28,446 nt of DNA from a virus (taxonomy: Duplodnaviria > Heunggongvirae > Uroviricota > Caudoviricetes), in IMG/VR virus record IMGVR_UViG_2622736468_000007; one strand, 5' to 3'. The position numbers and the translations under genes were made by a program. This document shows positions 24,435 through 24,971 of this stretch, piece by piece (positions within the stretch are counted from its first letter, which is position 1; every line of letters starts with the position of its first letter). The notes under the pieces are model-generated. The model was not told the DNA's origin. It ran no database searches and saw only the letters and a program-made list of their open reading frames with translations.

Positions 24435-24971
24435 ATGTCATTTATTAAAACTTTTTCCGGGAAGCATTTTTATTATGACAAGATAAATAAAAATGACATC
24501 GTTATTAACGATATCGCGGTTTCCCTTTCAAATATCTGTCGCTTTGCTGGTCATCTTTCACACTTCTACAGCGTTGCCCAACATGCGGTGCTTTGCAGCC
24601 AGCTGGTACCACAGGAATTTGCTTTTGAAGCGTTAATGCATGATGCAACAGAAGCGTATTGTCAAGACATCCCCGCGCCACTGAAACGCCTTCTTCCTGA
24701 CTATAAACGGATGGAAGAAAAAATAGACGCCGTAATCCGTGAGAAATACGGGTTACCCCCGGTTATGAGCACGCCTGTGAAATATGCCGATCTCATCATG
24801 CTCGCAACCGAACGCCGTGATCTCGGGCTTGATAATGGCTCTTTCTGGCCTGTACTGGAAGGTATCCCGGCAACAGAGATGTTCAAAGTTATTCCACAGT
24901 CGCCAGGCCATGCCTACGGGATGTTTATGGAACGCTTTAACGAGTTATCGGAGTTACGCAAATGCGCATGA
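24435..24971 (+). CDS. yfdR: HD-domain phosphohydrolase, YfdR/YfbR-like 5'-deoxynucleotidase
   Basis: Start MSFIKTFSGKHFYY... with GGAGAACGAA RBS; H...HD...D motif (SVAQHAV...ALMHDATEAYCQDIPAP). Confidence 0.75.
   Translation: MSFIKTFSGKHFYYDKINKNDIVINDIAVSLSNICRFAGHLSHFYSVAQHAVLCSQLVPQEFAFEALMHDATEAYCQDIPAPLKRLLPDYKRMEEKIDAVIREKYGLPPVMSTPVKYADLIMLATERRDLGLDNGSFWPVLEGIPATEMFKVIPQSPGHAYGMFMERFNELSELRKCA

Follow-up and report, generated by a model that had tools for sequence, protein, structure and literature searches.

The yfdR gene of a defective lambda-like prophage is probably a conserved early-left gene rather than defence cargo

Gene content of the prophage and identity of yfdR

The window, i.e. 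the complete stretch of 28,446 nucleotides analysed here, covers that end of a lambda-like prophage which holds its regulatory and integration genes. On the minus strand, towards lower coordinates, a cro-like (21944-22147) and a cII-like gene (21343-21912) were found, together with genes for RusA, KilA-N, DUF968, antiterminator Q, lysozyme, an Rz-like protein, terminase and tail proteins. The plus strand carries the cI-type repressor gene, yfdR, a 64-codon open reading frame (25006-25200) and a DUF4365 gene (25932-26951), and an integrase gene runs convergently to them (Table 1). E. coli 2014C-3061 has a near-identical locus, in which the integrase gene adjoins yjjG at the prophage end; a scan of the window for tRNA and tmRNA genes as attachment site found none. 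Repressor, excisionase, integrase and the lambda-like gene order thus bear out the prophage location assumed in the original prediction. The prophage is defective. Its large terminase gene is split into two open reading frames, three IS elements (IS3-family, IS66-family and IS1) interrupt it, and replication genes are absent, with no room for them between the cII-like gene and RusA. Other genomes and viral contigs have the order yfdR-xis-DUF4365-int, too, with approximately 99.5% identity.

Table 1. Coordinates of the features around yfdR in the window.
Feature	Position	Strand	Evidence or remark
cI-type prophage repressor (HTH + Peptidase_S24)	22235..22909	+	Pfam Peptidase_S24 1.5e-26; PHROG 4 transcriptional repressor 1.7e-49
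Repressor gene terminator	22921-22940	+	Directly before the PL-like promoter
Candidate early-left promoter (PL-like), TTGACA-16 nt-CATAAT	22949..22976	+	11/12 consensus match
Two operator-like sites, TGTACC-N5-GGTACA	22956-22972, 22976-22992	+	Overlap the PL-like promoter; tandem repeat D1
STnc100/PasD-family prophage small RNA-like element	24001..24224	+	Rfam RF02076
GC-rich hairpin GCCCCTGCGGGGC, terminator-like	24324..24336	+	Junction where yfdP-yfdQ is missing relative to mEp460 and K-12
yfdR Shine-Dalgarno site GGAG	24425..24428	+	6 nt 5' of the ATG; read from the sequence
yfdR coding sequence	24435..24971	+	178 aa, HD-domain phosphohydrolase (predicted)
YfdR signature codon H50	24582-24584	+	Invariant in alignment
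YfdR HD dyad codons H69-D70	24639..24644	+	Alignment with homologues and YfbR
YfdR signature codon D119	24789-24791	+	Invariant in alignment
Excisionase (recombination directionality factor), 64 aa (predicted)	25006..25200	+	PHROG 1553, E=2.6e-34
Promoter-like site before the DUF4365 gene	25870-25899	+	Promoter scan
AT-rich DUF4365 gene (PD-(D/E)XK nuclease-like), between xis and int	25932..26951	+	Pfam DUF4365 7.3e-19
Tyrosine integrase, convergent with the yfdR-xis unit	27223..28446	-	Pfam Phage_integrase, Arm-DNA-bind_3, Phage_int_M

According to the list of open reading frames, yfdR runs on the plus strand from an ATG at 24435 to a TGA at 24969-24971. A longer, mechanically called frame starting at 24372 encloses it; the ATG at 24435 is the start annotated in K-12 and in RefSeq. 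The product is identical to YfdR of E. coli K-12 (b2361) at 172 of 178 positions (97%), free of gaps, and all six substitutions (D20N, D134N, N151K, L154Q, A155S and D169E) fall outside the residues of the HD signature. PHROG 318, "deoxyribonucleoside 5' monophosphate phosphatase", matched the protein over its full length (residues 1-178, E=1.7e-108). Using megablast against 5,426 complete E. coli genomes, matching loci named "yfdR: 5'-deoxynucleotidase" by RefSeq were found in 2,971, and only six records were at least 99% identical to the allele of the window. An alignment of 29 homologues with 64-96% identity showed H50, H69, D78 and D119 to be invariant and D70 and E73 to be kept in at least 90% of the sequences, and the metal-binding signature H...HD...D of the HD superfamily is intact in the window protein. 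Pairwise dN/dS values against the alleles of K-12, mEp460 and Stx2c phages ranged from 0.03 to 0.06 (Nei-Gojobori). Open reading frame, identity to K-12, PHROG 318 match, HD residues and dN/dS establish yfdR as a real, intact gene under purifying selection, and the predicted YfdR-like HD-domain gene was found exactly at this place. It is the E. coli prophage gene yfdR, for which the gene itself, the enzyme class and the binding to DnaA have already been published (PMC4776307).

The protein was assigned by sequence to YfdR and not to YfbR. The Pfam model YfbR-like (PF12917) scored 24.6 bits against a gathering score of 25.9, and the NCBIfam YfbR equivalog (NF003009) gave 20 bits at a cut-off of 122. 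Comparison of the YfdR family profile with YfbR yielded E=0.17 in hmmsearch, with a local match of 36-40 residues around the HD motif, and E=2.4e-4 at 44% probability over 36 columns in hhalign. Orthology to YfbR was rejected on the basis of these sub-cut-off scores and of a match confined to the HD motif. There, the YfdR stretch MHDATEAYCQDIPAPLK aligns with YHDASEVLTGDLPTPVK of YfbR, a 5'-deoxynucleotidase of solved structure, such that HDAtE...DiPaPlK in YfdR stands against HDAsE...DlPtPvK in YfbR. The E. coli 5'-deoxynucleotidase YfbR (PDB 2PAQ) thus has the HD-superfamily signature HDAxE...D-P-P-K at the metal site in common with YfdR, and a similar reaction was reported for both. However, YfbR is encoded by a chromosomal housekeeping gene and YfdR by a prophage gene, and the nucleotide affinity reported for YfdR is much lower (PMC4776307). 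On the authority of Zimmerman et al. (2008), that paper describes YfdR as structurally homologous to YfbR and as having a much lower affinity for nucleotides. Among solved structures the closest is that of Atu1052 from Agrobacterium tumefaciens (PDB 2GZ4), matched over the full length by the family profile (E=2.1e-17); with approximately 22% identity to YfdR and no assigned function it informs about the fold only. An AlphaFold model of mediocre confidence (pLDDT 70.3, pTM 0.72) was all-helical, as expected of an HD fold. A Foldseek search of the PDB with this model retrieved 2GZ4 as sole match (TM-score of approximately 0.6, probability 1.0) and did not retrieve YfbR. The classical phage dNMP phosphatase is Dmp of phage T5, from which the label "dNMP phosphatase" on phage genes derives. 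Dmp, a deoxynucleoside-5'-monophosphatase encoded by a pre-early gene, has the same annotated reaction as YfdR and is made early in infection. Homology between the two was rejected (hhalign probability 0.4%, E=0.16), and the likeness is that of a functional analogue only. Overall, the sequence data describe YfdR as a small, presumably metal-dependent HD-domain phosphohydrolase.

The early-left module and the neighbours of yfdR

The gene belongs to a group of lambda-like temperate phages comprising CPS-53/KplE1, mEp460, Stx2c and related phages. In the plaque-forming phage mEp460 the repressor gene is followed on the same strand by a hypothetical gene, yfdP, yfdQ, yfdR, yfdS, about ten small early genes and int. 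In CPS-53 of K-12 the order is yfdP-yfdQ-yfdR-yfdS-yfdT-ypdJ-torI, torI encoding the excisionase, and Stx2c-converting phages carry extra genes between yfdR and xis. We also inspected 80 IMG/VR viral contigs with a YfdR 97-99% identical to that of the window, 74 of which had enough flanking sequence upstream and 78 downstream. Directly 5' of yfdR, yfdQ was found in 54 of the 74 loci, and directly 3' of it, overlapping its end, yfdS in 51 of the 78, both always on the same strand. Direct adjacency of yfdR and xis, the arrangement of the window, occurred in 2 of the 78 loci. Given the gene order in mEp460, K-12 and the IMG/VR loci, yfdR is regarded as a constant part of the early-left operon.

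The window lacks yfdP, yfdQ, yfdS and yfdT, and the usual synteny of yfdR is consequently missing there; this absence is a matter of context and leaves the orthology of yfdR unaffected. Compared to mEp460, exactly the yfdP-yfdQ cassette is missing, and homology stops at the yfdR stop codon (blastn breakpoints). In mEp460 and K-12, hairpins similar to the one at 24324-24336 stand on either side of the yfdP-yfdQ cassette. In phage SfII an uninterrupted match to the window extends from 23960 up to the start codon of yfdR, where the query ended; hence, a plaque-forming phage, too, has the leader abutting the upstream region of yfdR without yfdP-yfdQ. The closeness of yfdR to xis and int in the window is the result of module loss, with yfdS and later genes absent. 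None of the hallmarks of a moron or accessory cargo gene was found for yfdR, as an own promoter, an atypical GC content and a variable presence in its slot are all lacking. Its GC content of approximately 0.41-0.50 is close to the values in the repressor and integrase regions nearby. The view of yfdR as cargo in an integrase-proximal accessory block was therefore given up, given the same-strand yfdP-yfdQ-yfdR-yfdS module and the rarity of the xis adjacency.

The comparison with individual phages gave a consistent picture. YfdR of K-12 has 178 amino acids as in the window, and in both cases the gene lies 5' of the prophage excisionase gene on the same strand. K-12 differs by yfdP-yfdQ upstream and yfdS-yfdT-ypdJ between yfdR and torI, and by excisionase and integrase of other types (no similarity to TorI, 22% identity to IntS). 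Functional temperate phages, namely mEp460, Stx2c-converting phages, the cdtI phage and Shigella phage VIT_AJPSC, encode a YfdR 95-98% identical to that of the window, while the protein of ST64B is more distant (66%). In mEp460, as in the window, yfdR is located 3' of the repressor gene on the same strand, with a GC-rich, small RNA-like leader before the module; however, mEp460 has yfdP-yfdQ on the 5' side and yfdS plus further early genes on the 3' side, whereas in the window yfdR stands alone between leader and xis. Stx2c phages resemble the window in the repressor region (96% at the DNA level), xis (83% DNA, 90.6% protein) and int (97% DNA).

The neighbour 3' of yfdR had been taken for an AlpA regulator. 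Its product matched the excisionase family PHROG 1553 with residues 1-64 against profile positions 1-63 of 65, and was 90.6% identical to the "excisionase" of phage 2H10 and to the products of Stx1a and Stx2c phage genes. The reading frame has a good Shine-Dalgarno site and lies 2 kb from the integrase gene. Pfam gave only sub-threshold HTH_17 and MerR matches. An identity as AlpA was rejected (BLASTP against K-12 AlpA, E=0.22; no match to Phage_AlpA, PF05930, at E<=0.01), and no similarity to TorI was detected. Based on these matches the frame is annotated as the prophage excisionase gene. RefSeq left its counterpart in strain 2014C-3061 unannotated.

The DUF4365 gene shows the features of cargo, with a promoter-like site of its own and an atypical base composition (GC 0.33-0.36). 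Its product matched the PADLOC models Aga_REase (8.9e-9) and PDC-M02A. This gene is taken to be the actual accessory cargo and a better defence candidate than yfdR, and it deserves closer attention than the latter.

Promoter, operators and leader upstream of yfdR

The best sigma-70 match of the region is the candidate PL-like promoter at 22949-22976. Both operator-like sites at this promoter share the sequence TGTACC-N5-GGTACA with two further sites, at 22151-22167 and 22201-22217, between the cro-like and the repressor genes. In the whole window 7 matches were found versus 0.66 expected, and none of 100 shuffles reached 7. The arrangement looks like OL/PL and OR. A promoter scan found no plus-strand promoter-like site between 22976 and 25870. 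Since the sole upstream promoter-like site is overlapped by operator-like sites, yfdR and xis would be shut off in the lysogen and switched on by induction, and yfdR is probably silent in the lysogen.

Between the candidate promoter and yfdR a reverse-strand gene (23317-23796) was found, the product of which has hydrophobic stretches and belongs to the ECs1072 family according to the RefSeq naming of its counterpart in E. coli 2014C-3061. This gene, antisense and next to the repressor gene, is worth more attention than yfdR. Three strong terminator-like hairpins lie in the same interval, and a search for an N-like antiterminator frame 3' of the candidate early promoter gave nothing convincing. 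The antisense gene, the three hairpins and the lack of an N-like gene count against the expression of yfdR from the promoter at 22949-22976 that was proposed from the sequence.

Upstream of yfdR a GC-rich structured leader (23906-24350) encloses the STnc100/PasD-like element. The match to RF02076 covered model positions 1-206 of 206 with 41.1 bits at a gathering score of 47 (E=7.9e-7), and the fold of the leader at 23990-24350 had a z-score of -6.45. A GC-rich, small RNA-like leader is kept upstream of yfdP or yfdR in mEp460, SfII, SfIV and SfV. As an observation in its own right, the STnc100/PasD-like element just 5' of yfdR merits more attention than yfdR itself.

Function of YfdR and weighing of the explanations

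Published work on YfdR comes mainly from K-12. Multicopy yfdQ-yfdR together with yfdS or yfdT suppressed over-initiation mutants and inhibited initiation at oriC in the wild type (Noguchi and Katayama, PMC4776307). YfdR was found to bind domain I of DnaA via Phe46 in competition with DiaA and DnaB, and oriC replication in vitro was inhibited in extracts over-supplied with YfdQRST (PMC4776307). Over-expression was the only condition under which the effect on DnaA appeared, and a possible artefact is conceded by the authors; deletion of yfdQRST caused no replication phenotype under normal conditions and none with hydroxyurea (PMC4776307). Hydrolysis of nucleoside monophosphates by the K-12 protein was weak and of low affinity (PMC4776307). 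A role of YfdR in the growth of the ancestral phage, like the inhibition of DnaA by lambda P, was suggested by the same authors (PMC4776307), and the points on YfdR and DnaA recur in PMC5448010 and PMC12122000. In a metabolic-engineering study that referred to a reported CMP phosphatase activity of YfdR, a yfdR knockout left the CMP yield unchanged. In lambda, early-left genes 5' of xis in the exo-xis region are associated with inhibition of host replication and with cell-cycle effects (PMC10834534), and lambda P binds DnaA and inhibits initiation at oriC. Position and proposed purpose of these lambda factors match those of YfdR; however, lambda P targets domain III of DnaA and YfdR domain I at Phe46, and the proteins are unrelated.

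A tblastn search brought up relatives of YfdR in 324 phage records. Among these are virulent phages infecting Caulobacter (phiCbK), Bacillus, Stenotrophomonas and Acidovorax as well as phiKT, a podovirus of E. coli. In phiKT the homologue lies between the genes for DNA helicase and DNA polymerase, i.e. in a replication module, and in phiCbK its neighbours are early genes, with a DHH phosphoesterase and RNase H encoded close by. Its retention by virulent phages, and its place in the replication module of phiKT, argue for a service to the phage itself and not for immunity of the lysogen.

We consider it probable, at roughly 75%, that yfdR is a conserved early-left gene of lambda-like phages that aids the take-over of the host, found here in a defective prophage. 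In the lysogen, yfdR would be repressed through the two operator-like sites overlapping its upstream promoter. After induction or infection it would be transcribed together with the early-left genes and xis, and YfdR would then help to divert the cell to phage DNA synthesis, either by restraining initiation of host chromosome replication via binding to domain I of DnaA, by adjusting the dNMP pool, or both. The local copy may contribute little, because the prophage is crippled and without yfdQ, yfdS and yfdT; the published in vivo effect required yfdQ plus yfdS or yfdT, which the window lacks.

These same circumstances lend some weight to the view that yfdR is an inert passenger of this particular prophage, no longer usefully expressed and simply not yet decayed. 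The split terminase gene, the three IS elements, the missing replication genes and the absent partner genes agree with it, as does an early transcript that must cross an antisense gene and terminator-like hairpins in the absence of an identifiable antiterminator. Intact reading frame, Shine-Dalgarno site and signature residues speak against decay, however, and so does the fact that further genomes and viral contigs have the yfdR-xis-DUF4365-int arrangement, approximately 99.5% identical; we regard this possibility as doubtful, yet deserving consideration. That yfdR in a cryptic prophage is kept as a domesticated host function, slowing initiation at oriC under stress to the benefit of the bacterium, was proposed by Noguchi and Katayama (PMC4776307). 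The intact reading frame inside the heavily degraded prophage of the window agrees with it. According to the account of Wang et al. (2010) relayed there, deletion of CPS-53 raises sensitivity to H2O2 and acid, and deletion of yfdQ or yfdS raises that to H2O2. However, the latter phenotypes concern yfdQ and yfdS, both absent from the window, the yfdQRST deletion showed neither a replication nor a hydroxyurea phenotype (PMC4776307), and the low dN/dS was measured between phage lineages, where selection in the phage pool explains it equally well. Domestication is therefore judged unlikely.

The original prediction had held a defence or counter-defence role of the gene worth testing, with service to the phage's own replication as alternative. 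For defence, YfdR would be made in the lysogen and, on infection by another phage, deplete or distort the pool of deoxynucleotides. This idea is invited by the presence of an HD-domain phosphohydrolase gene in a prophage, approximately 1 kb from a nuclease-like gene matching defence models. Known nucleotide-depleting defences remove dNTPs, however, and YfdR is annotated as acting on monophosphates, weakly, and not on dNTPs, with a low nucleotide affinity for the K-12 protein. No PADLOC-DB v2 model matched YfdR (0 families at E<=0.01). The gene showed no promoter-like site to itself and follows a promoter overlapped by operator-like sites, it is a syntenic early gene of functional temperate phages with homologues in virulent ones, and no literature linking YfdR or an HD-domain deoxynucleotidase to phage defence was found. 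A defence role is thus extremely improbable. Counter-defence would mean that YfdR, during lytic growth, removes a nucleotide-derived immune signal or a toxic modified nucleotide and not ordinary dNMPs. Given its low affinity for standard nucleotides, the enzyme might have another physiological substrate, and expression early in infection together with the occurrence in many unrelated phages would fit. On the other hand, arms-race genes might be expected to diversify rapidly, and YfdR is strongly conserved (dN/dS 0.03-0.06); the phiKT homologue sits inside the replication module and not among early anti-host genes, and no link was found in the literature, which makes this role quite unlikely. 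The own-replication alternative, in turn, gained support from the early-module synteny, the homologues in virulent phages and the phiKT replication module. In sum, gene identity, prophage setting and the own-replication alternative of the original prediction held, while cargo, AlpA and defence did not.

A far-reaching and very improbable extension of the early-left reading would see YfdR-family HD proteins as a widespread take-over factor with two functions, catalysis on some nucleotide substrate, which might be an immune signal or else a dNMP that is damaged or modified, and jamming of DnaA domain I. If this were true, a lone yfdR in a decayed prophage would be a domesticated replication brake or give cross-protection against superinfecting phages. 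As a discovery the yfdR of the window matters little, its allele differing from that of K-12 by six residues outside the signature. The value of the analysis is a corrective one: yfdR is most probably to be seen as a conserved early gene for phage replication and host take-over, and not as defence cargo.

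Genes beside xis and the repressor gene

The DUF4365 protein gene between xis, the excisionase gene, and int outranks yfdR, the HD-domain gene, as a candidate for defence cargo. DUF4365 was described as a PD-(D/E)XK nuclease effector domain in short-Argonaute SPARDA systems (PMC10810196). The encoded protein gave weak matches to the PADLOC models Aga_REase (8.9e-9) and PDC-M02A, and no family was matched by its C-terminal last ~190 aa. A GC content of 0.33-0.36 was found for the gene, with a promoter-like site upstream (25870-25899). The gene fills the moron slot between xis and int, which in Stx2c phages contains other DNA.

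A further slot, variable among otherwise near-identical prophages, holds a 159-aa ORF in the window, whereas mEp460, a plaque-forming temperate phage, has a 122-aa gene after its repressor gene. Superinfection-exclusion genes typically sit in such a post-repressor position. The protein contains two hydrophobic stretches and matches PHROG 6315 (unknown function), while Pfam and PADLOC gave no match. Its counterpart in the near-identical prophage locus of E. coli 2014C-3061 is named "ECs1072 family phage-associated protein" in RefSeq.

Coordinates of features in the window and in comparison locus L003 (own numbering)
Feature	Position	Strand	Remark
Resolvase/invertase gene	614-1204	+	adjoins tail-fibre-assembly gene/IS009 sRNA match
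IS009 sRNA match	1336-1534	-	overlaps tail-fibre-assembly gene
Prophage defects	3197-5298, 5511-6724, 8090-10423, 14307-14702, 20550-21343		split terminase, IS elements, missing replication genes
cspA-type thermoregulator 5'-UTRs (two)	11977-12407, 16200-16639	-	
TGTACC-N5-GGTACA copies	22141-22220 (two); 22949-22992 (two)		between cro-like and repressor genes; over candidate early-left promoter
159-aa ORF	23317-23796	-	between repressor gene and early-left genes, opposite strand
STnc100-like element	24001-24224	+	inside GC-rich leader 23906-24350
Cassette-junction hairpins	window 24324-24336; L003 4585-4600 and 5888-5902		GC-rich
DUF4365 protein gene	25932-26951	+	339 aa, DUF4365 domain at N-terminus

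Leader and module boundary upstream of yfdR

The element at 24001-24224 in the leader matched the whole model of the prophage sRNA family STnc100, at a sub-threshold 41.1 bits (gathering score 47; E=7.9e-7), and the region folds far more stably than shuffled sequences (z=-6.45). A weak DicF-like match was found at 24162-24216. The 3' end is formed by a hairpin and its downstream U-run, followed by a hairpin with a 25-bp stem (24222-24310) and the GCCCCTGCGGGGC hairpin. The STnc100-like leader is kept 5' of yfdP or yfdR in mEp460, SfII, SfIV and SfV; RefSeq labels the region as a frameshifted hypothetical protein. STnc100 was linked to PasD sRNAs (2026 preprint).

The yfdP-yfdQ cassette of mEp460 and of K-12 (CPS-53 prophage) has GC-rich hairpins on both sides, short and similar to each other (GACCTTGCAGGGTC and GCCCCTGCGGGGGC), whereas the cassette-less junction of the window carries only one. 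This difference suggests that the GC-rich hairpins are recombination points at module boundaries.

Prophage decay, tail fibre and immunity

The prophage of the window is defective. Two ORFs stand in place of one large terminase gene, the terminase gene is immediately followed by a tail-tube gene, and the stretch from the cII-like gene to RusA lacks its replication-gene region. The inserted IS elements belong to IS1, the IS66 family and the IS3 family; the IS3-family element carries an ALIL frameshift pseudoknot. The cspA-type 5'-UTRs belong to prophage cold-shock genes, comparable to those of Qin-like prophages.

The IS009 match over the tail-fibre-assembly gene, beside the resolvase/invertase gene, suggests that the tail-fibre segment is invertible.

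The candidate operator motif TGTACC-N5-GGTACA occurs 7 times in the window, versus 0.66 expected. It sets the immunity specificity of the prophage, which is held in common with Stx2c phages.
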